Virus record (IMG/VR): IMGVR_UViG_3300000292_000047 | Strand: one strand, 5' to 3' | Length of the DNA stretch: 48,335 nt | Source of the DNA: a virus | Lineage: Duplodnaviria > Heunggongvirae > Uroviricota > Caudoviricetes | Shown: piece after piece, positions 1 through 48,335 of the stretch | Numbering within the stretch: position 1 is the first letter of the stretch | Layout of the letters: each line of letters opens with the position of its first letter | The notes under the pieces: generated by a model | Told to the model about the DNA's origin: nothing | The model's database searches: none | Seen by the model: the letters and a program-made list of their open reading frames with translations, nothing else | Translations under genes and position numbers: made by a program

Positions 1-118
1 ATCAGATTTCTCCGGTTTAACCAGGGCGGGTATCGCTCGGTTTCGGGTATAACCTTAGGAAATTTTTTCCCACCTGTAAAGCGCTTTTTATATAAATCTA
101 TAATTATATAATTCTATG
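1..118. repeat. Copy A of ~105-bp conserved promoter/5'-leader repeat (minus-strand sense); first 54 bp identical to window end
   Basis: Near-identical to 7517-7640 and 16999-17108; contains ccggagaaatctgATG (SD + start) in minus sense and AT-rich tatataaatctataattatata block. Confidence 0.8.
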
Positions 119-701
119 CCACTTGCCAGAGAGCATCATGCAACTGGATACCTCCATTGCACTGGTTGCCCCAGCCATGCCAACCATCAGGTAAATCACC
201 GCGAGCAAACAGCTCAATACGAGGAACATCACCTAACAGCCTTACCAGCTTGTCACGAACCACATCAGGCTTCCGAGAATGCTCCAGACGAGGCGATGTA
301 AACGACTGAATGATCCCCGCATCAAGGCGGGTCGGCAATTTGCCTTTTACCGCAAACAAGCAATCTTCACTGTTTGCACGAGTCATATGCCCCATCCCCA
401 TCACCAGCTTATCTGGTTGTCGGCTACCACATTTGTTCCATGTGAAGCCCTTCATGGTCATAAGCCTGAATCCCCATGCTTTCACCACCAGCAACGCTTC
501 TTCTGGCTGAGTCGGAACCCACCACATGGCCAACAAACACGATTCAGGATTAGCAAGCTGCCAGACAGGAATACGAGCAATATCCTCAGCTTTCATCGTT
601 GGATACTTAAAACCAGCTCCACGATTCCCATCCTTACACTTATCTTTGTATTCCCAGGGGGGATCTGCATAAATCAGATTAAACAATGCAATTGCCTCCA
701 T
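114..701 (-). CDS. MT-A70 family DNA N6-adenine methyltransferase
   Basis: 195 aa; N-terminal DPPW motif (LIYADPPWEY); ATG at 699-701 checked, GGAGG upstream. Confidence 0.7.
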   Translation of the reverse strand: MEAIALFNLIYADPPWEYKDKCKDGNRGAGFKYPTMKAEDIARIPVWQLANPESCLLAMWWVPTQPEEALLVVKAWGFRLMTMKGFTWNKCGSRQPDKLVMGMGHMTRANSEDCLFAVKGKLPTRLDAGIIQSFTSPRLEHSRKPDVVRDKLVRLLGDVPRIELFARGDLPDGWHGWGNQCNGGIQLHDALWQVA

Positions 702-1008: not shown

Positions 1009-1084
1009 TGGTGGCCCCTACCGGATTTGAACCGATGACCGTGCGATTATGAGTCGCCTGCTCTAACCACTAAGCTAAGGGGCC
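1009..1084 (-). tRNA. tRNA with CAT anticodon (Met or Ile2), CCA encoded
   Basis: Minus-strand reading GGCCCCT..CTCATAA..GGTTCAAATCC..AGGGGCCACCA; 7-bp acceptor stem, T-arm ATCGG/CCGGT, anticodon loop CTCATAA. Confidence 0.8.
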
Positions 1085-5731: not shown

Positions 5732-6093
5732 TTCAACTCCTCCCGACGACGTTCCTGAAGCTCTAGCATTGCGGCTCGGAAATCCTGCCACCATTCCTCA
5801 TCGGCTACTGGGGTGTTCCGCTCCAGCACCTTGTCCGCATCGGCGATCAGGTTTGCCAGACTCTTGTCTGAAATCTTCGTTACCGGAGTCGTTGGTTGCT
5901 CAACCTGCCCGATAGGTTTTATCGTGCTCAAAAGGAGGCGACGGCGGGAAAGTGGTGCCCCACAACGACGGCCATCTTCCTTGCGATATGTTTCTTTCGG
6001 ACCAACACACCAGGTTGTCGGCGTCTCGCGCAACTTCACTTTTTTCTCACCATCATTGGTAATGATTATTCCGGTATGTGTTTTGATGCTCAT
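5728..6093 (-). CDS. Hypothetical protein
   Basis: 121 aa; ATG 6091-6093; ATGA overlap with upstream gene. Confidence 0.45.
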   Translation of the reverse strand: MSIKTHTGIIITNDGEKKVKLRETPTTWCVGPKETYRKEDGRRCGAPLSRRRLLLSTIKPIGQVEQPTTPVTKISDKSLANLIADADKVLERNTPVADEEWWQDFRAAMLELQERRREELK

Positions 6094-6371
6094 GCCACAG
6101 CCCCTCTCAACGGCTTAACTTTGGCTAATAAGGTGTTAAACAACATGGAGTTAGGATTCATGCCAAATGGCAATTCCGGTTTAGCGGAGTAGTACAGGCA
6201 ACCATTTATTTTCCTGGTTGTTATCTGTCCTTCGGCAACCATGCTTCTCAGTCTGCAACGCATAGAGTTCTGCGACACACCAATGTGCTCCGCGATTACG
6301 TCCACTTTTGAACATGGGTGATCGGTCAGGAAATTAATCACATCTTGGGGGTTAATAATTTTGCGTTTCAT
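6090..6371 (-). CDS. Putative winged-helix DNA-binding protein
   Basis: 93 aa from ATG 6369-6371; HTH-like segment VDVIAEHIGVSQNSMRCRLRSMVAEGQI. Confidence 0.4.
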   Translation of the reverse strand: MKRKIINPQDVINFLTDHPCSKVDVIAEHIGVSQNSMRCRLRSMVAEGQITTRKINGCLYYSAKPELPFGMNPNSMLFNTLLAKVKPLRGAVA

Positions 6372-6416
6372 TGTCGAGGCGTCCTTATACATTTATATAA
6401 ATATATAATTCTATAT

Positions 6417-6448: not shown

Positions 6449-7516
6449 TCAGGCTTTCAATAGCGATTCTTTCAGATATCGGGCATCAGCCAGGGCGTTT
6501 GGCGTAATCTTGCGAACCCATGCATTACGGGTTGGACTCCACTTAAAGGCGCGTGATTTAAGCAGCGAACGAATGTTTGCCTCTGGTTTGCCAGGGAAAT
6601 AAAACAGGATGCGGTTATCCTCTGGATCTATCTCCATAGAAAAGCCGTCGTATTCTTCGCGCTGTGCTCCTGTTACAGACTTGACCGATTCAAGCTCCTT
6701 AATACGGCTCTGTAGTCGTTTGATTTCGGCGTTATTGTTGCTCAGTGCGTATGAAGGGAATCCGATGCGCCCACAGAAATCTCCGGCCAGTAACTCTTTG
6801 GCTTCGCTTTCTGTAAACCTGAGATCGATTAATGCAGAAAGCTGCTGTATTTGGTCTTTTTTGTATTTGCGAATGGCCTTATTTGCGGCCTTCATTTTGA
6901 CGTGTGACTTCATGCAGCCTTGCAGCTTACGAAGCAACTTAAATAGCGCATCAGGATCATCAGACGAAATTCCATTACGACCAACACCTGCGGCTTTGCT
7001 CTCGTAGTGTGATGCTTTACTTTCGCATTCAACAAACGCTTTTCTGAATAACGCATCAGCTTTAGACAAACGGCGGCGATGGCCTTTCGCGCTATAATGG
7101 TCAACTAAAATCGGCTGGCCTAACGGGATCACATCCAACAGGTCATGCGCTCGCTTATGCGCTACCGCACCTTCTTTTCTGGCTTTTTCTGCACGAGCAA
7201 TATATCGGGCAAGACGCGCGTTCTGGCGTTCCTGATAGGTGTTTACGTAATCATCTCCGCGCTGCTGCTGTTCAAGCCATGCTTTGCGCAGATCTTCTGT
7301 TACGTCCACCAGCTCCGCAGGGATACAACCAGTTTGGGCTTCATAAGAGTAACCATCCTCATAGATACGCCCATCGTCTTCAACAAAGAAAAAGGTTTCG
7401 TGCTCATCGCTTTTGACCATACGACCATTAACATGGCGTAATAGGTAGCCAGTATCAGTGCTTAACAGGCTGTTAGGGTTGTTGATCCAGTCAGAAATAA
7501 TTACTTGTTTATTCAT
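6449..7516 (-). CDS. Conserved hypothetical protein driven by leader copy B (possibly DUF3560-like)
   Basis: 355 aa from ATG 7514-7516 (MNKQVIISDW) immediately after leader SD ccggagaaatctg; family assignment from memory only. Confidence 0.55.
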   Translation of the reverse strand: MNKQVIISDWINNPNSLLSTDTGYLLRHVNGRMVKSDEHETFFFVEDDGRIYEDGYSYEAQTGCIPAELVDVTEDLRKAWLEQQQRGDDYVNTYQERQNARLARYIARAEKARKEGAVAHKRAHDLLDVIPLGQPILVDHYSAKGHRRRLSKADALFRKAFVECESKASHYESKAAGVGRNGISSDDPDALFKLLRKLQGCMKSHVKMKAANKAIRKYKKDQIQQLSALIDLRFTESEAKELLAGDFCGRIGFPSYALSNNNAEIKRLQSRIKELESVKSVTGAQREEYDGFSMEIDPEDNRILFYFPGKPEANIRSLLKSRAFKWSPTRNAWVRKITPNALADARYLKESLLKA

Positions 7517-7640
7517 CAGATTTCTCCGGTTTAACCAGGGCGGGTATCGCTCGGTTTCGGGTATAACCATAGGAAATTTTTTCCCACCTGTAAAGCACTT
7601 TTTATATAAATCTATAATTATATATTTATAGATTTTCGAT
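7517..7640. repeat. Copy B of ~105-bp promoter/5'-leader repeat
   Basis: Near-identical to 1-118 and 16999-17108. Confidence 0.85.
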
Positions 7641-10054: not shown

Positions 10055-10172
10055 ACCACGATATGTGGTATTAAAACCACATATCGTGAGTTTTTCAATG
10101 GGCGAAACAAAAAATAACCTTCTATTTGTGGTCCACCTCTCGTCTTACCATGTGAAAACCACTAAATGTGGT
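10055..10172. promoter_or_regulatory. Immunity operator region with three ACCAC-N5-GTGGT-type sites between divergent genes
   Basis: accacgatatgtggt (10055-10069), accacatatcgtgag (10076-10090), accactaaatgtggt (10158-10172). Confidence 0.6.
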
Positions 10173-10866: not shown

Positions 10867-10908
10867 TACACAGCACGGCGAAAGCCGTGCATTTCTACGC
10901 TCAAAAAA

Positions 10909-10923
10909 ACCACATTTTGTGGT
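10909..10923. promoter_or_regulatory. Fourth operator-like palindrome downstream of repressor gene
   Basis: accacattttgtggt, same ACCAC-N5-GTGGT architecture; preceded by GNRA-loop hairpin 10872-10889. Confidence 0.5.
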
Positions 10924-10958
10924 TTTGACAACATGTAAAAGTATAAAAGAGGCTACGC

Positions 10959-11333: not shown

Positions 11334-11360
11334 CTGAAAGCGGGCTAACGCCCGCTTACA

Positions 11361-11460
11361 TGATTATAGATTTATATAATTATATAAAACGCTTTTCATC
11401 CGCCAAAAAGTTGGTTATGCTTACCTCGTTCTATAAATATAGATTTATAGAATTATATAA
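11361..11460. promoter_or_regulatory. AT-rich repeat block upstream of parA (candidate centromere/operator)
   Basis: ttatagatttatataattatataa and ctataaatatagatttatagaattatataa; same motif as in leader repeats. Confidence 0.55.
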
Positions 11461-11483
11461 CCAAACACATGGAGTCTCGACAA

Positions 11484-12137
11484 ATGACTATCTCTGTAGG
11501 TATTTTCAACGGAAAAGGCGGCGTAACCAAATCAACAATTGCCCGTGCTTTAGCAGTTGCTTATGCAAAGGCCGGCTGGAATGTATGCCTGATCGATATG
11601 GATGTGCTTAACGGAACGGTAACGCGTTGGGTACAACGCAGAATGGCCAACAATATCGAACCTGCAATCGCGGCGCAGCCGTGCGGCACGCCATCACAAG
11701 TCCAGAAAATCATCGAATCAGAAGTATACGACCTGGTTATCGTCGATGGCGGTGCCTACGCATCTGAATCAGTACCGAAGCTCTCTGAATTTCTGGATAT
11801 GGTTATTTTGCCAACCAGATTCTCTACCGATGACCTAGAAACCACCGTTAACACAGCTCACGGCATCGTTAAAAAGGGTGTGCCAATCAAGAAAATTTGC
11901 ATGGTGTTCTCAGGCGCGGCTGAAAACGAAGCCGACTACATTGAAGCCCAAGAGTACCTAGCTAATACGCCATACTTTGTTGTCGATAAGTACATTCCCC
12001 ACAAGCCAGCTCTGAGCAAAGCTCAGGATAAGGGCTTAAGCCTCATTGAATGCTCATACGTTGCGCCACGCAAAAAGGCAGACGACGTTATTCAGGGGAT
12101 TATCAACCAGCTTGAGGCTCTGACTACTGCCGCGTAA
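11484..12137 (+). CDS. parA: ParA/ParF-type partition ATPase (alternative ATG at 11469)
   Basis: Deviant Walker A GKGGVTKST; MinD/ParA fold; GGAG SD before ATG 11484. Confidence 0.8.
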   Translation: MTISVGIFNGKGGVTKSTIARALAVAYAKAGWNVCLIDMDVLNGTVTRWVQRRMANNIEPAIAAQPCGTPSQVQKIIESEVYDLVIVDGGAYASESVPKLSEFLDMVILPTRFSTDDLETTVNTAHGIVKKGVPIKKICMVFSGAAENEADYIEAQEYLANTPYFVVDKYIPHKPALSKAQDKGLSLIECSYVAPRKKADDVIQGIINQLEALTTAA

Positions 12138-12168
12138 TATATAATTATAGTTTTATAGATTTATATAA
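12136..12168. promoter_or_regulatory. AT-rich repeat block between parA and parG-like gene
   Basis: atataattatagttttatagatttatata. Confidence 0.5.
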
Positions 12169-12180
12169 GAGGGGATACAC

Positions 12181-12429
12181 ATGGCCGGACCATCAAAACC
12201 ACCAAAGAAGAACAGCAAAGGCGTACCGCCATCGATCGAACAACCGCAGGTTTTCGACCCGACTGAAACGCCAACCAGAACCAAATCAGGTGGGGCACAA
12301 ATGGCGTTTAACGTCGACCCTGAATTTAAACGCGAGTACAAAACGTTCGCCAGCTCAATGGATATGTCATTGAAAGAAGTGCTGACAAAATCTTTTGAGT
12401 TACTCAAGGCTCAATACAACCAGAAGTAA
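12181..12429 (+). CDS. ParG-like ribbon-helix-helix centromere-binding protein
   Basis: 82 aa immediately after ParA; basic unstructured N-terminus then predicted beta-strand/helix segment; AGAGGGG SD. Confidence 0.55.
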   Translation: MAGPSKPPKKNSKGVPPSIEQPQVFDPTETPTRTKSGGAQMAFNVDPEFKREYKTFASSMDMSLKEVLTKSFELLKAQYNQK

Positions 12430-12491: not shown

Positions 12492-12641
12492 ATGTCCGAG
12501 CAACAATATACACGGTTACTGAAAGCTCGTCTAACCGACCTCAAACGGCTGCAAGCTGGTCGCTTATTTGCCCTGCTATCCACCAGGCCAGAATGGGTAC
12601 GTGAAGCAGTTCTGAAAGGCTTAATGCGCTCCAGCGTTTAA
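12492..12641 (+). CDS. Small hypothetical protein
   Basis: 49 aa from ATG 12492 with AAGGGGAA SD. Confidence 0.3.
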   Translation: MSEQQYTRLLKARLTDLKRLQAGRLFALLSTRPEWVREAVLKGLMRSSV

Positions 12642-12650
12642 ATTCAACCA

Positions 12651-12674
12651 TAAAAAAGGCCCCCGAAGGGGCCT
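12651..12674. terminator. Hairpin terminator, usable on minus strand (bidirectional candidate)
   Basis: aggcccc-cgaa-ggggcct perfect stem; A-run on plus gives U-run on minus. Confidence 0.6.
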
Positions 12675-12679
12675 AATCG

Positions 12680-12802
12680 CTACTTGCTGCTAATGTTTAT
12701 CGTCACATTCAGAGCGTTATCAGTAATCTTCCAACCCTCCCCATGTGGCGTAAACAAAGCCCCAGTAACAACGATAAAAATACACATACAGTATTTTTTC
12801 AT
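12680..12802 (-). CDS. Small hydrophobic peptide (40 aa), candidate type I toxin-like or exported peptide
   Basis: MKKYCMCIFIVVTGALFTPHGEGWKITDNALNVTINISSK; ATG inside track ORF 12680-12862; terminator immediately downstream. Confidence 0.3.
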   Translation of the reverse strand: MKKYCMCIFIVVTGALFTPHGEGWKITDNALNVTINISSK

Positions 12803-13200
12803 TGTATGGCCCTTACAGGCCGTTTCACGGCATCCCCACCGACGAAAACAACGCGAGAGCAAGCACGGCTGCTTGTGCTTGCATGTACGGCAACGGAGAA
12901 TCCTCCCCTAAAGTCGGTGCCCGGGTGCGAATCGGCGGGAAGGTCCACAGGTATTTTACGATTATTTTAAGATTAGTAATAGGAAAGAAATTAAACGAAA
13001 AAACTCGTTTATTTTCACAAAATCAGTAACCTACCCACAATCTGTGAGTTTGCAGGCACAACAAGAATCACAATTTTTTGAAGCATAATAGTGGACTATT
13101 ATTACCTTTTGGGTAAAATTAACTTGCTGCTTGTGCTTGCGTGGTTGTTTATACAACGACGTTATGCTGAAAGGACCGCGAATCCGATCAGCACGAAAGA

Positions 13201-13309: not shown

Positions 13310-13392
13310 CACTTTCCGAGCCGTAGCAAAATCTACGGTCGGGATTGGAACCCCGTAGACACAATGGCGCATACCGCGTTAGCGGTTTTTTT
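13310..13392 (+). ncRNA. Candidate small structured RNA ending at intrinsic terminator, upstream of antirepressor operon
   Basis: TTGACA at 13285-13290; hairpins ccgtag/ctacgg; terminator accgc-gtta-gcggt + T7 (13373-13392); no ORF. Confidence 0.3.
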
Positions 13393-13558
13393 ATGCGTAA
13401 AGCACTGCTACACCCAAATTATGGTGGGGCGTGCGGGGGAGTCGTAAGACTCGCCGGTTCGTCATTGTGTCCGGTAGTTCCAACCCTGCACGTCTCACCA
13501 CCCAATGATTGGAACCTGACGGTGGTGAGTATCCTTAACCTTTAAGGGAATCATCACA

Positions 13559-13750
13559 ATGACAAACCTACCCCATGACTATTACGTCAACCTCGTAAAG
13601 ATCCTTCTCAAGAAAGCCTCATACGCCGATAAATTCCGCCTGGCTGAAATCATCGAGCGCGAAGCTATGCGCATCGCCAGCAACGATAACGCTGTTTCTG
13701 ACGCAAAAATCTCCCTCGTAACCAAAGTTGTTATGGGAGGTGCAAAATGA
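13559..13750 (+). CDS. Small protein translationally coupled to antirepressor
   Basis: 63 aa; stop overlaps ant start (ATGA). Confidence 0.45.
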   Translation: MTNLPHDYYVNLVKILLKKASYADKFRLAEIIEREAMRIASNDNAVSDAKISLVTKVVMGGAK

Positions 13751-14898
13751 AAACGCTTCCGATCGTTAACACCCTACAGCCTATCCTGCATAATCAGATT
13801 CCAGTAATCACAACTGAGCTACTCGCCCGCCTTTATGGAACAGAAGCAATCCGTATACAGCAAAATCACCATGAAAATAAAACTCGGTTCATTGAGGGGA
13901 AGCACTTCTTTAAAGCTGTTGGTGATGAACTCAAAAATTTGCGACTAGTTTTAAACGAGTCACAAAATGAGGTGCAAATTTCCCCCAAAACTCGCTCTCT
14001 CATCCTCTGGACAGAACGCGGGGCTGCACGTCACGCCAAAATGCTTGAAACTAACCAAGCGTGGGATGTGTTCGAACGGCTGGAAGACTGCTATTTCAAC
14101 CAGAACGCGCAAACGGCCGCGACCGTTACCGTCTCGCCAAACAATCCTCGTGAGGTTGTCGATACGCTCAACGCCAAACCGATGTTTTACATTAAGGTGT
14201 GCAACAACGAGCCACTCACAACCTCAGCCGATGTTGCCCAGGCATTCAGCACCACAAACAATTCCATCGTTATGGCCATCGATGCGTTACGCATTCCTCG
14301 TACAGCTGCGGCACGTCATTTCTTTAAAGAGCAACGACCGCTGGAAGGAAGCGACCGCGAAATAACAATCTATCGCATGACAAAAGACGGATTTACCTTG
14401 CTCATGGAAAGTATCGACGGTCCAGGCGTGAAAGATATCAAGCTGGCCTACATTGAAGCCTTTAACGCTATCAGCAGCGTGTTAAAAACACAGTACGAGC
14501 GTGATCTGGCTAAACGACTGTACCAGGAAAAAACGATTATCCGCGCGGCAACAGAGCATAATCGGCTATTAACAGAACCGAAATACAGGAAGGAACTAAT
14601 CAAGGAGTTTGACAAGGCAACAGGGAAAACCAAAGCGGCGCTAAATCTGCCAGCAATGACTCAGGAAAATGTGATATCAGCCTTACTTCTTGATCTGCTC
14701 AGAAACGCCAGAGCACTTATCAGCTTTGACGAAAACCTGAATCCTCAGCTCAAGCTACTACCACCGACAGGCAAAGTAGTCGACCAGGCTGATCACAACA
14801 GCATACTCAGCGTACTGGATGCAAACCTGCCAGCCAGGACACTACAGGATCTGATAAAAACATGTGCTGATAAGCTGGCACAGAAGAGCAGACCATAA
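13747..14898 (+). CDS. Antirepressor-type regulatory protein (ORF6N-like N-terminus + Rha domain)
   Basis: 383 aa; ITIYRMTKDGFTLLMESIDGPGVKDIKLAYIEAFN matches Rha pattern; GGAGG SD. Confidence 0.7.
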   Translation: MKTLPIVNTLQPILHNQIPVITTELLARLYGTEAIRIQQNHHENKTRFIEGKHFFKAVGDELKNLRLVLNESQNEVQISPKTRSLILWTERGAARHAKMLETNQAWDVFERLEDCYFNQNAQTAATVTVSPNNPREVVDTLNAKPMFYIKVCNNEPLTTSADVAQAFSTTNNSIVMAIDALRIPRTAAARHFFKEQRPLEGSDREITIYRMTKDGFTLLMESIDGPGVKDIKLAYIEAFNAISSVLKTQYERDLAKRLYQEKTIIRAATEHNRLLTEPKYRKELIKEFDKATGKTKAALNLPAMTQENVISALLLDLLRNARALISFDENLNPQLKLLPPTGKVVDQADHNSILSVLDANLPARTLQDLIKTCADKLAQKSRP

Positions 14899-15719: not shown

Positions 15720-15980
15720 TTATTCCAATTCTGACGACACTTTAACCTTTTCCCATACAAGGGTTTGCAGCCTTAACAGAATCGCATCTTTATCAAGGTG
15801 TGAAAGATCCTTAACCATATCGTCAAACGACAGAACGCGAATGGCCATCTCAATGACCCTCGGCGGCTCACCCTTCTCATATCGCTTATATGTAGCCAAC
15901 GATATCCCAAACTCTTCGGCGGCTCGCTCCTGCGTCCAGTTCATCCCACGACGCCATAATTTCAATTCGTAACCCGTCAT
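15720..15980 (-). CDS. XRE-family HTH transcriptional regulator
   Basis: 86 aa; LKLWRRGMNWTQERAAEEFGISLATYKRYEKG; GAGGA SD. Confidence 0.65.
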   Translation of the reverse strand: MTGYELKLWRRGMNWTQERAAEEFGISLATYKRYEKGEPPRVIEMAIRVLSFDDMVKDLSHLDKDAILLRLQTLVWEKVKVSSELE

Positions 15981-16610: not shown

Positions 16611-16991
16611 TTACTTAACGAGGAATAAAAATGGTTTATCGTTCGGCGGTGTAATCGGGGCTGGCTCGCTTTTGCTCATGCGATCAGTGTACCAGGCCAA
16701 CTCCTTGTCAAAGTAAGCCTGATTAAAATAGGCCATGAATGTGGTTTCAAATCCATAACGACCGCTAATACGCAGCATCTGATTGCCGTTCTCTGTTTCC
16801 AGATATACCTGGGCACGTTCCTGATTCTCCTTCAGCCAGGTTAAAGCCTCATCGCACGAGGACAAACGATACTCATCATCGTAGCCGTCATCGATGCGGC
16901 TTGAAGAAGAACGGCAAATCACGCCAACAGAACCAGCCAGGATAGTTTGAATTTTAAGGAAAGCGTTTTTGCGGATTTTAATCATGCTCAT
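16611..16991 (-). CDS. Hypothetical protein driven by leader copy C
   Basis: 126 aa; ATG 16989-16991 directly after leader. Confidence 0.55.
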   Translation of the reverse strand: MSMIKIRKNAFLKIQTILAGSVGVICRSSSSRIDDGYDDEYRLSSCDEALTWLKENQERAQVYLETENGNQMLRISGRYGFETTFMAYFNQAYFDKELAWYTDRMSKSEPAPITPPNDKPFLFLVK

Positions 16992-16998
16992 CGGGTTA

Positions 16999-17108
16999 TC
17001 TCCGGTTTAACCAGGGCGAGTATCGCTCGGTTTCGGGCATAACCTTAGGAAATTTTTTCCCACCTGTAAAGCACTTTTTATATAAATCTATAATTATATA
17101 ATTCTATG
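16999..17108. repeat. Copy C of ~105-bp promoter/5'-leader repeat
   Basis: 3 substitutions relative to copy A; SD-proximal end diverged. Confidence 0.85.
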
Positions 17109-17112
17109 ATCA

Positions 17113-19263: not shown

Positions 19264-20112
19264 TTAATGTTGGAGTGATTTCCAGGTCTTTCTTAACCTG
19301 TTATAACGCTGCTCAACGAGGGATCGTAAATATGCAAGGTCAGCACCAGGATACATGCCATCAGCAAATTCCTGACTAACCTCTCTGGTGATTTGATGAC
19401 GAAGTTCGGCCTCTCCCTTTTCCCGAACAAGACGCGCAGCTCTCTCCGCTGCTTTCTGTTTTGCCTTTATCTCTCTGGCCGTCTTCCTCTGACGCCATAC
19501 ATTCTCCATCTGCTCCTGAATAACAATACGCTTATAATCAGCCTCCGTTATCGCTTTTTTAAGCCGTTCGCTATTCTTCGCATTGAAGTAATTAAGTTTC
19601 TGGCTAACCGCACGTCTCCATGCTTGTTCAGTAATACCAACGGTTTCCAGCAGTTGATCACGAATCTCTATTTTCGCTGGCCAATACTGTTTATTCACCC
19701 GATCCCAGCGACGTTCATAATCAATAAAACCTAACGCTTTCAGTTGCGACAACGCCCTTGTACAGCGCGTTATAGACTTGTTCCCAGCTTCGGATACGGT
19801 AGACAGGCCGCAAAAATCAGCCAACGCCTCAGCACTAGCCAGAACCCGCTTAGAAATGATGTTTACATGGTGCAAAATCGCAGCGATCACAGCATTAATC
19901 GCCCGACGACGATGCTCGTTTATCCGGCGCTTCCGCTCTGACGGTTGATTAACGTAGAACGCAACCTCACACGTAAGATCACGCCCATTAATGCGCTGTA
20001 AAGCATCAGATAACACCAGCGGCAGCTTGTGCGTATGGTGCTTTGGAGGCTGGAACTCCGGCGACAAATTACAAACGTAAGCTGAACGTAGAGACGGCAT
20101 TGGTCTATCCAT
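19264..20112 (-). CDS. repA: IncFII-type (RepFIIA-like) replication initiator RepA; in-frame upstream ATG at 20244 possible
   Basis: RRRAINAVI and GLSTVSEAGNKSITRCTRALSQLKALGFIDYE align by eye with R100 RepA1 (RRRAIDALL, GLATESAAGKLSITRATRALTFLSELGLITYQ); ATG 20110-20112. Confidence 0.7.
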   Translation of the reverse strand: MDRPMPSLRSAYVCNLSPEFQPPKHHTHKLPLVLSDALQRINGRDLTCEVAFYVNQPSERKRRINEHRRRAINAVIAAILHHVNIISKRVLASAEALADFCGLSTVSEAGNKSITRCTRALSQLKALGFIDYERRWDRVNKQYWPAKIEIRDQLLETVGITEQAWRRAVSQKLNYFNAKNSERLKKAITEADYKRIVIQEQMENVWRQRKTAREIKAKQKAAERAARLVREKGEAELRHQITREVSQEFADGMYPGADLAYLRSLVEQRYNRLRKTWKSLQH

Positions 20113-20156
20113 ATGTTCGCTCTTGCGTCCACGGAAAACCAACGTATAATGGGAGT

Positions 20157-20237
20157 TGTCGAGGCGCCCATGGATTGTTGTTGTTGGTTTTCCGTGGATG
20201 TCGCAAGAAGCCCGCAGATTTATCTGCGGGCTTTTTG
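20157..20237 (+). ncRNA. CopA-like antisense RNA countertranscript to repA leader
   Basis: TTGCGT-N16-TATAAT at 20123-20150; strong terminator gcccgcaga-ttta-tctgcgggc + T5 at 20210-20236. Confidence 0.55.
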
Positions 20238-20710
20238 TTTCCATATCTGGTCACTTTCCAACCAGACACCCACAATCATAACCACGTTACGTGGTTTTAA
20301 GAGAACTCTACCACAACACTTTCGGTCATGCACGAAGTCTCTCACTGATCGAACGATAATCCACCAGTAAAAGGATCTAAATTGGATCTCGTTTTGCGAG
20401 CATCATACTACTGGCCTAACTCCAGTCAATGATTCCCAGCCAGAAACCTGCGGTAAACTCATCGTTCAGCAATATGCTGTCCGGCTTCAAAGATAAGGTG
20501 ACATCATCCCTTAACAGCGCGGCCAGTTCAGTTAAAGGGCTGTTCTGATTTAATGCTGGCCACTCATACCTGGTAATAAGTGGTCAGTCTTAACACTCAC
20601 CATTTGATTGCACCCGTGTTGACGATTTGTTACTGGATATCAGACACGCTGGATAGCCAGTAGAAACATACCATTAAAATTATTACAATAATTGGTCACA
20701 TGATTATCTT

Positions 20711-43678: not shown

Positions 43679-44398
43679 TTAACGAGAGAACGTCTTAGAA
43701 AGAATGTCATCAATAGCCTTTGTGACTTCATCAGCAAACGCATCCTCACCAGCACGTAGCGCCACGCCATGCCAATCAAGACGCTGCGAATAGTTAGGTT
43801 GCTGGATAAACGTAAGGATCAACGTAGGACGCCGCCCAACGCGCTGCCAGACGCCTGGTTGAAGCGGGTTACTTGTACCAGGTCGAACAACAAAAAACTC
43901 CGTAGGCTTGCCCTGACGGCGATTTTGATGCGCATCTCGCTGAACTCTTAGGCCAGATAAGACCTGCTGTAATTGCCCCCGCGAAATATTCCCGTATTTG
44001 TCCAGCTTTGCGCCGGGACCAGGAGCAAGCTGCCAGCCGTTAGGCAAATATCCACCAGCCCTTAGCGCCCCTTCTGAGCGTTTGTACTGTCGTTGGCCAC
44101 CTTCGATTTGCGGAGTCAACGTTACAGGGGCTGGCGTTCCTCCCCATTCACGAGCATACACAATGGCTGTAGGATCACTCTTCTTTGCGGCCAAAACGTA
44201 AGTAGAGTTCTGAATCCACGGCGTGGGCCTGTCAAATACCCGATTAATTTCATTCTTAATCGCAGCCTGAGAAGCCTTTGCCGTTCTGGTTGCCGCAAGC
44301 GCCATTGCGAATGGCAATTCACGTTCTTCAAGGCGCTGGAGTTGTCGTTGAATATCCTGAGAAGAAAAATCCATCTTTATCTCAATTCTGTCAGCCAC
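43679..44398 (-). CDS. Hypothetical protein
   Basis: 239 aa; GTG start with AGGAGG SD. Confidence 0.45.
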   Translation of the reverse strand: MADRIEIKMDFSSQDIQRQLQRLEERELPFAMALAATRTAKASQAAIKNEINRVFDRPTPWIQNSTYVLAAKKSDPTAIVYAREWGGTPAPVTLTPQIEGGQRQYKRSEGALRAGGYLPNGWQLAPGPGAKLDKYGNISRGQLQQVLSGLRVQRDAHQNRRQGKPTEFFVVRPGTSNPLQPGVWQRVGRRPTLILTFIQQPNYSQRLDWHGVALRAGEDAFADEVTKAIDDILSKTFSR

Positions 44399-44414: not shown

Positions 44415-45788
44415 CTACTTAATCAACGGCCGGAAAGCCGCCAGCACATCATCAGATCGTCCGATTGTTGAACCACCAGGCAACGGCAACTCAAACTCAA
44501 AACGAACAGCTTTCTCCAGACTCTCCCAGCGAAGAGAATCATCGTTAATAACGTGCAAATACCAGCTCTTACAGTTGAATATTGACCGCTTAATCCTGAA
44601 ACCATGTACACGACACAACTGCTTCACTTCATCATCAGAGTGAAACTTCTGGTAAAACCAGTGCCCCTTCCGGTACAACGCGGTAAAACCGTTATGATCA
44701 ATAAAATAAAGCCGGCTTTTGGAACTCGCCGCTTGTGTTTGCTTCAGGACTGTTTCCAGCTCTCCACGGCTACGACCAGAAAAGAATATTGACCCACCAG
44801 CTTTACACAGGCCTTTCAGAACCGTCAGAACAGACCATTCAGCCTCGACACTATCGACCGAGTTCAAAACGCTATCGCAAATCACGTAGTCGTAACGCCC
44901 TCGCGTTTTTAAGTCGTCCACCAGCGTATCAATCATCCGGTTTGTTGCGGTCCTATCCAGAGTGTTTCCAGCGCCCTTACGGCGGAAAAGCTCGAGATCA
45001 TGCAGGTTATATCCCTTTGCCCTGAGCATTCGCGCGTAGTCTCCCTGCCCCGAACCAAAATCAATTCCTCTTGGCGTCTTGGCAATGATCGGGAGGATCA
45101 ACGACTCATACAGGTTTGATTTCAGGCTGCCACCATTACGCAACCGCATAAGCTGCGCATACGTCTGGATGTATGTTGTTTTCTCCAGATGAGAATACTC
45201 AAATACACCATAAGTTTTATTCAGATAACTTTGGTATTTTTCCTTCTCAACATCAGGGATCACAAACACCGTTAGCGGTGTGCGCGTCATTTTCGCTGCT
45301 AATGCATACTGAGCACAGTGAATAACCTCACCAGACTGAGTAGCAACACAACCACCCCACGGACCATACTTGATAACCAGTTCCGCTATGTTCTTTCGAA
45401 CATATGCCATTTTCGCGCGCATATTGCCTGAGATCTGGCTTGCCGATACCTGAACAAAACCATGCTTATCTTCCAGACCGGACACCCTGCAACGCTCATC
45501 TCCGCTATCAAAATCCGTTCCGTTATGCAGTTGGTTAAACCGTACTTCGTCGTATACCGTCGTTTCACAGGGCAACACATACACCGCAGCACGCGTTATT
45601 CCCAACTTACGTAGCGCCTTCGTCCTTTGGTGTCCCGCCACCAGCAAATCGCCGCGCACTATCAATGGCTTCACAAGCCCCAGCTCCCTGACGCTTTCCG
45701 CCAGCCTCGCAAGATCATCCTCACCGATAAAACGCGGGTTATATTCCGCGCCGCGTAGGTGCGTTATGTCGTAATTCAGGTGAAGCAT
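44415..45788 (-). CDS. ParB-like domain fused to class I SAM-dependent methyltransferase
   Basis: N-terminal ParB-like region (LVAGHQRTKAL); C-terminal GIDFGSGQGDYA motif I; ATG 45786-45788 with GGAGG SD, TGATG coupling to upstream gene. Confidence 0.7.
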   Translation of the reverse strand: MLHLNYDITHLRGAEYNPRFIGEDDLARLAESVRELGLVKPLIVRGDLLVAGHQRTKALRKLGITRAAVYVLPCETTVYDEVRFNQLHNGTDFDSGDERCRVSGLEDKHGFVQVSASQISGNMRAKMAYVRKNIAELVIKYGPWGGCVATQSGEVIHCAQYALAAKMTRTPLTVFVIPDVEKEKYQSYLNKTYGVFEYSHLEKTTYIQTYAQLMRLRNGGSLKSNLYESLILPIIAKTPRGIDFGSGQGDYARMLRAKGYNLHDLELFRRKGAGNTLDRTATNRMIDTLVDDLKTRGRYDYVICDSVLNSVDSVEAEWSVLTVLKGLCKAGGSIFFSGRSRGELETVLKQTQAASSKSRLYFIDHNGFTALYRKGHWFYQKFHSDDEVKQLCRVHGFRIKRSIFNCKSWYLHVINDDSLRWESLEKAVRFEFELPLPGGSTIGRSDDVLAAFRPLIK

Positions 45789-46411
45789 CAGCACACCTCC
45801 CCAGCCAGCAATGCGGATACAAATCCGATATAGCTGCCATTATCATCAACATAACGAGACACCGCGCAGTCAAAACGATCCGCTTCCTCATCCGTTGCCG
45901 GGATTTTATGACCTCCAAATGACAGGTACTGAACTTTTACGCCTGATTTGGCCTCATCCTTCTCAAATGGGATATCCATACCCTCTGTGTCATCGTAGAC
46001 CGCCGCACTCAATAAGTTATCCAGTTCGCGCTGAGTAAAACCAATTGAGTCCAGAGCAAAATCATCGGCCGCAAGATCTGCAAGCTCCGCGCTTAACAAC
46101 TCTTCATCCCAACCAGCATTCAGCGGAATACGGTTGTCGGCCAGACGATATGCCTTCTTCTGATTCTCCGTTAGCCCAGCCAGAACAATGCAGGGAACAT
46201 CATCCATCCCCAACTGAGTGGCCGCAGCAATTCGACCATGACCAGCAATTACAACGTTGTTCTCGTCTATCAGGATCGGATTAGTCCATCCGTACTCCTG
46301 TATGCTGGCAACAATCTGATCTACCTGCTCCACGGAGTGTGTGCGAGCGTTCTTTTCATAACCAATCAACACAGAAAGTGGTAAAGAAACCACATTAAGA
46401 TGTTTTGTCAT
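45788..46411 (-). CDS. ParB-like nuclease domain protein
   Basis: 207 aa; VIAGHGRIAAA; shares C-terminal region with 42531-43121. Confidence 0.7.
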   Translation of the reverse strand: MTKHLNVVSLPLSVLIGYEKNARTHSVEQVDQIVASIQEYGWTNPILIDENNVVIAGHGRIAAATQLGMDDVPCIVLAGLTENQKKAYRLADNRIPLNAGWDEELLSAELADLAADDFALDSIGFTQRELDNLLSAAVYDDTEGMDIPFEKDEAKSGVKVQYLSFGGHKIPATDEEADRFDCAVSRYVDDNGSYIGFVSALLAGEVC

Positions 46412-47816: not shown

Positions 47817-48014
47817 TTAATGCTCGCGTCGTCCGGCGACAACTTCGGATTTGTATTTCAGGTCGCCCAGCAAGAATTGCAGTTTAAGCATCTTTGCCGC
47901 CGTGTAGTTCCCTGATTCCACAACCTCTTTCATGAGGTCATAAACGGCCGCTACATCATCAGCCAGGAACTCTTTGCGTTGCTGCTCAGTCGCACGTTTG
48001 AAGGAAATACGCAT
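47817..48014 (-). CDS. Hypothetical protein
   Basis: 65 aa from ATG 48012-48014; TGATG coupling to upstream gene. Confidence 0.4.
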   Translation of the reverse strand: MRISFKRATEQQRKEFLADDVAAVYDLMKEVVESGNYTAAKMLKLQFLLGDLKYKSEVVAGRREH

Positions 48015-48283
48015 CACTCATCATCTCCTGCCGCACATACAACCTCACAAAAAAAATCAGCAGAATGTTTCTCCTTGAACGAATGACGCTCAAAACCGCA
48101 CTCAATATCAGGCGCAAAAACATCCACCACATACGGTCTTTCAGAATGTTTGTTTTCCCAACGATAAACCGTAGTGACGTTGAAATGTTTTAACGCTTCA
48201 CGGAACTCAACGCTGCCCGTCAGGTTTTTTGAGGTCAGGTATTGCAGGAGGTTTTTTACTACTTCACGGTCTTGTACTTTCAT
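48014..48283 (-). CDS. Hypothetical protein, first gene behind leader copy A/D
   Basis: 89 aa; ATG 48281-48283 directly after ccggagaaatctg. Confidence 0.5.
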   Translation of the reverse strand: MKVQDREVVKNLLQYLTSKNLTGSVEFREALKHFNVTTVYRWENKHSERPYVVDVFAPDIECGFERHSFKEKHSADFFCEVVCAAGDDE

Positions 48284-48335
48284 CAGATTTCTCCGGTTTA
48301 ACCAGGGCGGGTATCGCTCGGTTTCGGGTATAACC
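48282..48335. repeat. Copy D of leader repeat, identical to window positions 1-54
   Basis: 54/54 identity with window start. Confidence 0.9.

Follow-up and report, generated by a model that had tools for sequence, protein, structure and literature searches.

A probable type Ib partition system whose ribbon-helix-helix protein would also regulate genes across an E. coli phage-plasmid

The stretch of viral DNA considered here (IMG/VR record IMGVR_UViG_3300000292_000047, Caudoviricetes; 48,335 nucleotides, referred to below in its entirety as the window) is a circular phage-plasmid of E. coli of about 48 kb, because a 180-nt repeat leaves its right end and resumes at its left end. It probably encodes a type Ib partition system whose centromere-binding protein, a small ribbon-helix-helix (RHH) protein, also regulates genes at several other places on the same molecule. 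The case rests on short AT-rich repeat arrays that are found both at the par locus and away from it: since all of these arrays change together in related elements, it is probable that one small protein binds them all, and that it serves both to segregate the plasmid and to control a set of the plasmid’s genes. Binding of the arrays by the RHH protein, the sign of the regulation and the partition activity are inferred from comparisons of sequence.

The initial annotation of this DNA, made from its letters alone, had placed a parA gene and a small ParG-like gene between repeats of an AT-rich motif, had seen the same motif at other promoters, and had called for a systematic motif search. When such a search is carried out with the 16-mer TTATAGATTTATATAA, exact copies are found at 88-103 (-), 7602-7617 (-), 17078-17093 (-), 11364-11379 (+) and 12153-12168 (+), together with a copy at 11445-11460 that carries one mismatch; with up to three mismatches allowed, 26 matches are obtained against 0.86 expected, a number reached in none of 100 shuffles. 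An 8-bp register resolves these matches into eight arrays of contiguous TTATAKAW units, which occur in either orientation (one of them, TTATATAA, being a palindrome) and number mostly four to the array:

11356-11387 (+): par array 1, TTACATGA/TTATAGAT/TTATATAA/TTATATAA, ending 5 nt upstream of the parA -35 element
11429-11460 (+): par array 2, TTCTATAA/ATATAGAT/TTATAGAA/TTATATAA, spanning roughly positions +1 to +32 of the predicted transcript, with its end 23 nt short of the parA ATG
12137-12168 (+): par array 3, ATATATAA/TTATAGTT/TTATAGAT/TTATATAA, overlapping the parA stop codon, with its end 12 nt ahead of the small gene’s ATG
88-119 (-): leader-1 array, GCATAGAA/TTATATAA/TTATAGAT/TTATATAA when read in the direction of its gene, 7 nt upstream of the -35 element
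7602-7633 (-): leader-2 array, upstream of the promoter of a DUF3560 gene
17078-17109 (-): leader-3 array, upstream of the promoter of a 126-aa gene
6385-6416 (-): array 13 nt upstream of a winged-helix regulator gene (6090-6371, -)
1207-1254 (no strand assigned): degenerate array of six units, between the lysis genes and a tRNA gene

All eight arrays are intergenic and fall within the regulatory and plasmid part of the element (1-17.1 kb), and a scan of the whole window found no array in its structural-gene part. The three par arrays bracket parA and the small gene, as had been proposed. The two degenerate sites that had been placed at 6391-6416 and 1224-1256 are likewise real, with extents that are better given as 6385-6416 and 1207-1254, and the span first drawn for the cassette (11361-12168) contains parA and the repeats but leaves the small gene outside.

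The par locus itself consists of the following features, in which the promoter (like all promoters described below) is a consensus prediction backed by its conserved position:

11340-11355 (+): terminator-like hairpin, GCGGGCTAACGCCCGC, which ends the upstream 124-aa gene and isolates the par promoter
11393-11421 (+): predicted sigma-70 promoter of parA, with TTTTCA (11393-11398), a 17-nt spacer and TATGCT (11416-11421)
11484-12137 (+): parA, encoding a 217-aa ATPase with the deviant Walker A motif GKGGVTKST at 11511-11537
12181-12429 (+): 82-aa ParG-like candidate for the centromere-binding protein, with a disordered Lys/Pro-rich tail (residues 1-45) and an RHH domain (about residues 40-80)
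12492-12641 (+): conserved 49-aa open reading frame (ORF) downstream of the small gene, which follows the RHH gene in most of the relatives examined as well

Hairpins equivalent to the first of these features stand ahead of array 1 in relatives. Array 2 begins seven nt after the -10 element and is followed by a ribosome-binding site (GGAG) and by the parA start codon, which annotated RefSeq relatives place at 11484 and not at 11469. Autoregulated type Ib operons classically have a promoter sandwiched between two arrays in this manner. The ATPase has no N-terminal DNA-binding domain and is of the size of type Ib proteins (the class of roughly 200-220 aa); it matches the Pfam families CbiA, ParA and MipZ, is annotated by PHROG as a ParA-like partition protein, aligns with positions 2-200 of the 203 in the NCBIfam ParA_partition model (78.6 bits, under the cutoff of 180), and finds its best partition matches in the PDB in ParF (4dzz, E=3e-4) and TP228 ParA (5u1g). 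The assignment of parA from its Walker A motif is thereby borne out. Three marks of a type Ib system are found together: a small ParA with a deviant Walker A motif, a downstream RHH gene, and promoter-overlapping arrays beside the operon. The 49-aa ORF is probably a part of the same operon and not its specificity determinant.

The candidate centromere-binding protein is more divergent. A word-index search with the 82-aa sequence recovered only relatives that are at least 80% identical to it, and an exhaustive profile search identified 101 remote homologues (counted as cluster representatives), mostly of 70-90 aa. Members of this family share the N-terminal pattern MAxPxKPPKKNxKGxPPS, a variable linker and the C-terminal pattern LNFKVxxEFxREFKxxAxxxDMSMxxLLxxxFExxK; when 83 of them were scanned against Pfam, 42 matched RHH_10, 21 matched Antitox_RHH and five gave a weak match to ParG. 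An AlphaFold2 (AF2) model calculated from the family alignment leaves residues 1-45 unstructured and contains helices at residues 47-59 and 64-80 (predicted local distance difference test, pLDDT, of 88-93), in the form of a monomer, in which dimerisation and strand formation are not visible. Every top match that Foldseek gives for this model in the PDB belongs to an RHH protein, namely the PutA DNA-binding domain, StnY, CdbA, CopG and ParG (1p94). The tail has a conserved Lys-rich motif, which may or may not correspond to the N-terminal Arg/Lys finger peptide that stimulates the ParA ATPase in type Ib systems. The protein is therefore ParG-like in its architecture and not a member of the ParG family (PF09274) by sequence; because an RHH fold is predicted and a Pfam ParG match is not found, the description ‘ParG-like’ that had been given to this gene holds for its build (a disordered tail and an RHH domain) and not for its family membership as Pfam defines it.

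The evidence that connects this protein to the arrays comes from relatives, which comprise contigs with ParA homologues 40-56% identical to that of the window (Serratia L006, Lelliottia L007, and L008-L014) and the Salmonella plasmid L005. No more than 10 kb of flanking sequence was taken for each of these, and the counts of dispersed arrays given for them are therefore minima. Nearly all ten retain the gene order of a cI-like gene, a variable gene, parA, an RHH gene of about 80 codons and the 49-aa gene, and the shorter order of cI-like gene, parA and RHH gene is kept by every one of them. Upstream of parA, the same plan is found in 11 of 11 lineages (array, -35 element, 17 (±1) nt, -10 element, array, ribosome-binding site), with the -35/-10 pair falling in the sole stretch between both arrays that is not AT-rich; the position of array 1 is occupied in all eleven by an array whose unit is specific to the lineage. 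The units, and the predicted beta-strands of the corresponding RHH proteins, fall into the following classes:

Window and L005: unit TTATAKAW; predicted RHH beta-strand [AGS]FNV
L006, L009, L010 and L014: unit TCKTTAAW (in other registers TTTAAAKA, TTTAATTC or TTCGTTAA); predicted beta-strand xNF[NK]V
L007, L008, L012 and L013: unit ATATAAAT / ATATMTTT; predicted beta-strand LLL[QR]L
L011: unit ATACATAA / ATATGTAT; predicted beta-strand LTFNI

Outside par, arrays built from a lineage’s own unit recur five to six times in L006, six times in L007, four times in L008, twice in L009 and once each in L010, L012 and L013, where about 0.3 or fewer would be expected. L005, which has the unit of the window, keeps eight of eight arrays at orthologous places (its positions 43880-43927, for example, correspond to 1207-1254 of the window). 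When exact 11-mers taken from the par arrays are searched for outside par, the resulting matrix is nearly block-diagonal: those of the window find sites in the window only, and those of L007, L008, L012 and L013 find them mainly within their own group. (A corresponding cross-lineage matrix of 24-mers with six or fewer mismatches is uninformative, as all AT-rich arrays cross-match.) Such comparisons support the assignment of the dispersed arrays to the same recognition system as the par sites. The RHH proteins of the relatives are 29-55% identical overall, and the class of the unit still follows the predicted beta-strand, a correspondence that is suggestive and does not amount to a strict code.

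An independent case is provided by NZ_CP037908.1 (L015), a 28.5-kb conjugative plasmid typed MOBC/MPF_T, in which a parA homologue and a 77-aa RHH gene are both preceded by arrays. It has little else in common with the phage-plasmids beyond a toxin-antitoxin block; the cI-like gene, the 124-aa neighbour and the 49-aa gene are all missing from it. Two further copies of its par-type array TATAATTATATTTTTATAG are found inside the operon for the type IV secretion system (T4SS), one immediately ahead of virB10 (11989-12010) and the other at 13764-13785. Because what this plasmid shares is mainly parA and the RHH gene, no other evidence speaks as strongly for the RHH protein as the reader of the arrays, in preference to another regulator of the phage-plasmid.

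The same plasmid bears upon the proposal that the arrays are operators of another lineage-specific regulator, such as a small helix-turn-helix (HTH) or winged-helix protein, that the par promoter simply belongs to the regulon of this other protein, and that the RHH protein binds some of the arrays or none. A winged-helix gene (6090-6371) does stand directly behind one array, an HTH gene (15720-15980) lies nearby, and most genes diverge between lineages, so that co-variation with the arrays is not unique to the RHH protein. Against this, the conjugative plasmid has arrays both at par and in its T4SS operon despite the few genes that it shares; arrays around the parA promoter and before the RHH gene are what type Ib operons normally have (PMC3130281, PMC9499535); tandem units as short as 7-8 bp, in mixed orientation, typify RHH proteins and not HTH dimers; the class of the unit tracks the RHH beta-strand; and the 49-aa neighbour is clearly similar across lineages with different motifs. 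A regulator other than the RHH protein is, on balance, unlikely.

Several further candidates were considered and set aside. The 49-aa protein as specificity determinant is clearly similar between the window and L007 and L008, whose motifs differ. The 124-aa upstream protein as array binder is only 20-27% identical between lineages and has no copy on the conjugative plasmid, and operators of the cI-like repressor are disfavoured by the presence of arrays on that plasmid, from which a cI-like gene is absent. Iterons were dismissed on the grounds that RepA is of the IncFII type and that no array lies near repA (19264-20244).

Among the five arrays that lie away from par, three head copies of a leader module of about 130 nt, which consists of the array, AAAGYGC, TTTACA, 17 nt, TAWGGT, a 5’ untranslated region (5’UTR) of about 50 nt, GGAGA and ATG. 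It had been noticed from the start that the motif is present in every leader copy, and this observation was confirmed: some 130 nt, from array to ATG, are common to three gene starts on the minus strand.

48271-48335 joined to 1-116, 7504-7630 and 16980-17106 (-): the three copies of the leader module
80-75 and 57-52 (-): leader-1 promoter, -35 TTTACA and -10 TAAGGT, serving an 89-aa gene (48014-48283, -) across the ends of the window
7594-7589 and 7571-7566 (-): leader-2 promoter, -35 TTTACA and -10 TATGGT, serving the DUF3560 gene (6449-7516, -)
17070-17065 and 17047-17042 (-): leader-3 promoter, -35 and -10 elements, serving the 126-aa gene (16611-16991, -)

The last of these genes adjoins a RelE/ParE toxin-antitoxin pair and the repA region, and a scan against Rfam matched the leaders to no family. 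The leader array is placed relative to its -35 element almost exactly as par array 1 is, and the spacer between the -35 and -10 elements carries the inverted repeat GGAAA-N3-TTTCC. The dispersed arrays of L006-L008 also head promoter/leader modules, within which the -35 element, spacer palindrome, -10 element and UTR are shared between lineages and the array alone differs. The leader promoters of relatives are close to consensus (TTGCnn, 17 nt, TATTAT or TATAAT), and each small operon of the maintenance region in these relatives is equipped with its own array-plus-promoter module, of which L007 has five. The spacer palindrome of L006-L008 reads TAGGAC-N5-GTCCTA; because it stays the same when the array changes, the spacer repeat has the look of an operator at which a second regulator, itself conserved, would act. 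The leader 5’UTR forms a modest two-step hairpin that is similar in shape in the window and L008 (z-scores of -0.9 to -2.4).

The remaining two arrays are of a different kind. The array at 6385-6416 follows the hairpin that ends the DUF3560 gene and abuts the ribosome-binding site of the winged-helix gene, whose start context, GGACGCCTCGACAATG, resembles that of parA, GGAGTCTCGACAAATG. A start context GGAGYCTCGACAA(A)TG (11472-11486; 6371-6386 (-)) is common to parA and to the first genes behind several dispersed arrays, and is encountered again at parA and at genes in the ‘leader-2 position’ in L006-L009, L012 and L013; array 2 and its ribosome-binding site would seem to have been copied in one piece, and the shared context may be either a regulatory element or no more than a scar of duplication. 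The six-unit array at 1207-1254 is near a tRNA gene (1012-1084 (-), annotated as Ile or Met in relatives), ahead of which, and just downstream of the array, is a 34-bp inverted repeat (1095-1177, 85% complementary).

The composition and placement of these arrays raise the question of whether a dedicated binder is needed at all, since AT-rich blocks might simply be UP elements, curved DNA or sites for H-NS, IHF or Fis that were spread by duplication of promoter cassettes. The array sequence is indeed almost pure A+T, the leader and parA arrays are placed where UP elements lie, and the three leaders are plainly copies of the same module. On the other side, each lineage has its own units even though every host belongs to the Enterobacterales (E. 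coli is the source of both the window and L013, whose units differ); they keep a strict 8-bp register and are used in both orientations; some of them contain G or C (TTCGTTAA, TTTAATTC); arrays are also situated downstream of a promoter, before the RHH gene, and inside operons at ribosome-binding sites; and relatives keep the promoter core and the spacer palindrome and vary the array alone. A reading without a dedicated plasmid-encoded binder is for these reasons very improbable, and the plain UP-element explanation that the initial annotation had itself raised against its own proposal is contradicted by the lineage-specific units and by arrays that leave no room for a promoter.

A second question is whether occupancy of the dispersed arrays would have any effect on transcription. 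The RHH protein might bind all of the arrays while the dispersed ones serve as extra centromeres or condensation sites, whose proximity to promoters is incidental. The phage-plasmid N15 has dispersed centromere sites (four inverted repeat, or IR, sites), and the arrays at 1207-1254 and 6385-6416 are without a recognisable promoter. The number of about four contiguous units per array also equals the minimum that activates ParA in the pSM19035 system (PMC9499535). Yet three of the arrays are placed like par array 1 relative to the -35 element and are copied along with a promoter in every lineage, as they are in the array-plus-promoter modules of the small maintenance operons of relatives; a protein array 5-7 bp from a -35 element is unlikely to be transcriptionally neutral; and the same sites act as operators in both of the known RHH systems. 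A purely centromeric function for the dispersed arrays in general accordingly has a low probability; it is unlikely for those 5-7 bp from a -35 element and possible for 1207-1254 and 6385-6416.

The preferred reading, in which one RHH protein serves both partition and regulation, must also accommodate a number of observations that weigh against it. The 82-aa protein has no direct significant match in Pfam, NCBIfam or the PDB sequences, and the best matches of its family profile in the PDB, although they are to RHH proteins, are weak (56B, E 0.12; ParG 1p94, E 0.19). Co-variation alone does not single out the RHH protein, because many genes diverge between lineages (the cI-like proteins are 30-46% identical and the 124-aa neighbours 20-27%). 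No dispersed array is present within the 14 kb of L011, and the RHH strand of L015, QLNLYV, is paired with a unit of the TTATAT/CTATAA type, so that the relationship of beta-strand to unit is not a clean code. Finally, the position of the leader arrays (about -43 to -74) is compatible with either repression or activation, and arrays that abut ribosome-binding sites without an obvious promoter might act as a roadblock, mark an internal promoter or be centromeres only.

With these points taken into account, the mechanism envisaged is one in which RHH dimers would coat each array cooperatively, one dimer to each 8-bp unit, by analogy with characterised systems. At the par arrays (two around the promoter and a third before the RHH gene) this would bring about autorepression and would build a partition complex that stimulates ParA, with the conserved Lys-rich tail of the RHH protein providing the stimulus. 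The same protein would occupy the five further arrays, at the three leader promoters, the winged-helix gene and the post-lysis site; those at the leaders and the winged-helix gene would tie operons across the plasmid to the level of the partition protein, and the dispersed arrays could at the same time add centromeres. Repression seems likelier than activation, because the leader promoters of relatives are near consensus, the placement of the arrays copies that at the parA promoter, and both precedents are repressors; the RHH protein would most likely repress its target promoters. The original suggestion that the partition protein may act as a global regulator thus finds support, at the level of sequence, in the co-variation of arrays in ten relatives and in the T4SS arrays of L015.

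Two characterised partition systems are particularly close to this arrangement. ParG of TP228 binds arrays with an 8-bp period (a 4-bp box and a 4-bp AT spacer, direct or inverted, with one dimer per box), and these arrays serve as operator and centromere alike (PMC3130281). The window resembles TP228 in its small Walker-type ParA, its protein of about 80 aa with a flexible N-terminal tail and C-terminal RHH domain, and its arrays of 8-bp period upstream of the operon. It differs in that the TP228 unit is ACTC plus an AT spacer in arrays of 8 and 12 units, as opposed to TTATAKAW in about four; in that ParG is described as regulating its own operon only, as opposed to the five further arrays found elsewhere here; and in that the similarity of the 82-aa protein to ParG is marginal (profile E=0.19). 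In the omega system of pSM19035, the parS sites are made of 7-bp repeats and overlap three promoters, and ParA is activated only where four or more repeats stand side by side (PMC9499535). Both systems possess an RHH centromere-binding protein that regulates (or, in the window, would regulate) several operons through contiguous, short, non-palindromic repeats of mixed orientation, and the functional minimum of four repeats in pSM19035 is the usual size of the arrays described here; the omega-type trait of identical arrays at the promoters of several separate operons is found at parA and the three leaders. The differences lie in the repeat (heptads of WATCACW, 7-10 per site, versus 8-bp TTATAKAW units, about four per site), in the Gram-positive host of pSM19035 (Firmicutes, inc18), and in its targets, which are copy control, partition and toxin-antitoxin genes and not, as here, phage-plasmid operons of mostly unassigned function or, in L015, T4SS genes.

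The analogy with N15 that had first been drawn is apt with respect to the dispersal of sites, which in both phage-plasmids are scattered through the genome and not clustered at the par operon, and less so with respect to mechanism, which is closer to omega/parS and to ParG/parH-OF. Partition in N15 is of type Ia, with a large SopA, the HTH protein SopB and single palindromic IR sites, whereas the present system is of type Ib and relies on an 82-aa RHH protein and tandem 8-bp arrays; dispersal alone is shared. The title of a 2008 paper by Ravin, Rech and Lane, which is among the references of PMC11652158, connects the Sop system with late gene expression. KorB of the IncP plasmid RK2 is a ParB homologue with about a dozen dispersed operators, through which replication, maintenance and transfer operons are co-regulated. 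These plasmid-wide operators parallel the arrays in the T4SS operon of L015; KorB differs in being a large ParB with an HTH, of the type Ia/chromosomal kind, and in acting on single 13-bp palindromes, where the RHH protein would use tandem units.

A more ambitious and more tentative extension of the regulatory reading is that an ‘establishment regulon’ is under the RHH protein as its master repressor throughout a family of enterobacterial phage-plasmids and the conjugative plasmids related to them, and that the specificity of the protein and that of eight or more operator arrays have been switched together several times; we regard this as possible, and as rather more doubtful than the dual role itself. 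Upon entry into a naive cell that lacks the RHH protein, the array-controlled promoters would all fire, and would then be shut as the partition protein accumulates. Promoter targets would include the Lar-type gene of one relative, alongside the arrays at T4SS genes in the conjugative one. In L009, an array (7228-7259) directly precedes a Lar-type restriction-alleviation gene (6513-7199), and in L010 an array (1866-1897) directly precedes a gene for an Rv2179c-like exonuclease (1259-1855); these neighbours are hints that array-controlled genes include functions in establishment or anti-defence. If this extension were true, incompatibility or immunity groups would follow, and in each genome dozens of 8-bp units would have had to evolve in concert.

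The element that carries this system is widespread. The window matches 61 plasmids in PLSDB (46-52 kb, all typed as non-mobilizable, 95-99.9% identity), and complete E. coli genomes contain 72 placements of it, of which 71 fall on plasmids of 47-51 kb (71 of 5426 genomes); three unannotated Yersinia myoviruses (vB_YpM_39/41/44) are 98% identical to it. Beyond E. coli, the hosts of relatives include Salmonella, Klebsiella, Citrobacter, Serratia and Lelliottia. RefSeq relatives are annotated with an IncFII-type repA, a RelE/ParE toxin-antitoxin pair, a cI-like repressor (an HTH domain with a weak, sub-threshold match to Peptidase_S24) and the ParA gene, as well as a P2-like tail module, terminase, portal and capsid. 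The phage-plasmid family is thus common yet almost wholly unannotated. Its identification with the pSLy3 phage-plasmid group proved wrong, as pSLy3 is a 114-kb SSU5-like element. A 32-kb non-mobilizable plasmid, L004 (NZ_CP024829.1), has repA, the toxin-antitoxin block and the leader-3 gene in common with the phage-plasmid, from which it may have arisen by deletion. Conjugative plasmids that carry cfr contain a 47-nt fragment of a window-type leader (the array and -35 element, 100% identical) beside IS26 (1444-1490 in L015), adjoining the same RelE/ParE block as in the phage-plasmid. This fragment and L004 point to an exchange of maintenance modules between phage-plasmids and conjugative plasmids.

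Other features of the window deserve a brief record. Directly downstream of the par operon is a full-length match to the ryfA RNA (12652-12948 (-), 141.8 bits against a gathering score of 80), a locus that may represent a small toxin or type I toxin-antitoxin system on the phage-plasmid. Also beside the par cassette, Rfam identifies isrK (13320-13392 (+)) and C4 antisense RNA (13417-13505 (+)), which are followed by a 63-aa ORF (13559-13750 (+)) and by a protein with ORF6N and Rha domains (13747-14898 (+)); the block looks like an immI module of the P1/P7 style (c4, icd and ant antirepressor control). Palindromes of the form ACCAC(A)-N-(T)GTGGT occur at 10057-10088, 10903-10930, 20275-20302 and 46383-46410, flanking the cI-like gene and also near repA and the ParB/Srx genes, and could be repressor operators or mere terminator hairpins. 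Two proteins with ParB/Srx N-terminal domains (44415-45794 (-) and 45788-46411 (-)) are encoded upstream of the terminase, and relatives have a third such gene nearby; as partners of ParA they were rejected, being far from parA, in the packaging region, and in one case annotated with a methyltransferase domain in a relative.

A literature search that covered few subscription journals found no description of the partition system or arrays of this phage-plasmid group. The principle that a partition protein can act as a plasmid-wide regulator is already established. What appears to be new is the family with its 8-bp unit, the connection with promoters of phage-plasmids and with T4SS genes, and the set of co-varying classes of specificity. 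If the reading advanced here is true, it would provide the first regulatory map of the family (one small RHH protein, the 32-bp operator that it reads and the defined promoters that it targets) and would extend the omega/KorB principle to type Ib systems of Gram-negative phage-plasmids and to the transfer genes of a conjugative plasmid. The relatives would then constitute a natural series of matched protein and operator specificity classes for the study of how RHH beta-strands read DNA, from which orthogonal repressor/operator pairs might be drawn as tools, and which would bear as well upon the concerted change of specificity in a multi-site regulon and the origin of incompatibility groups.

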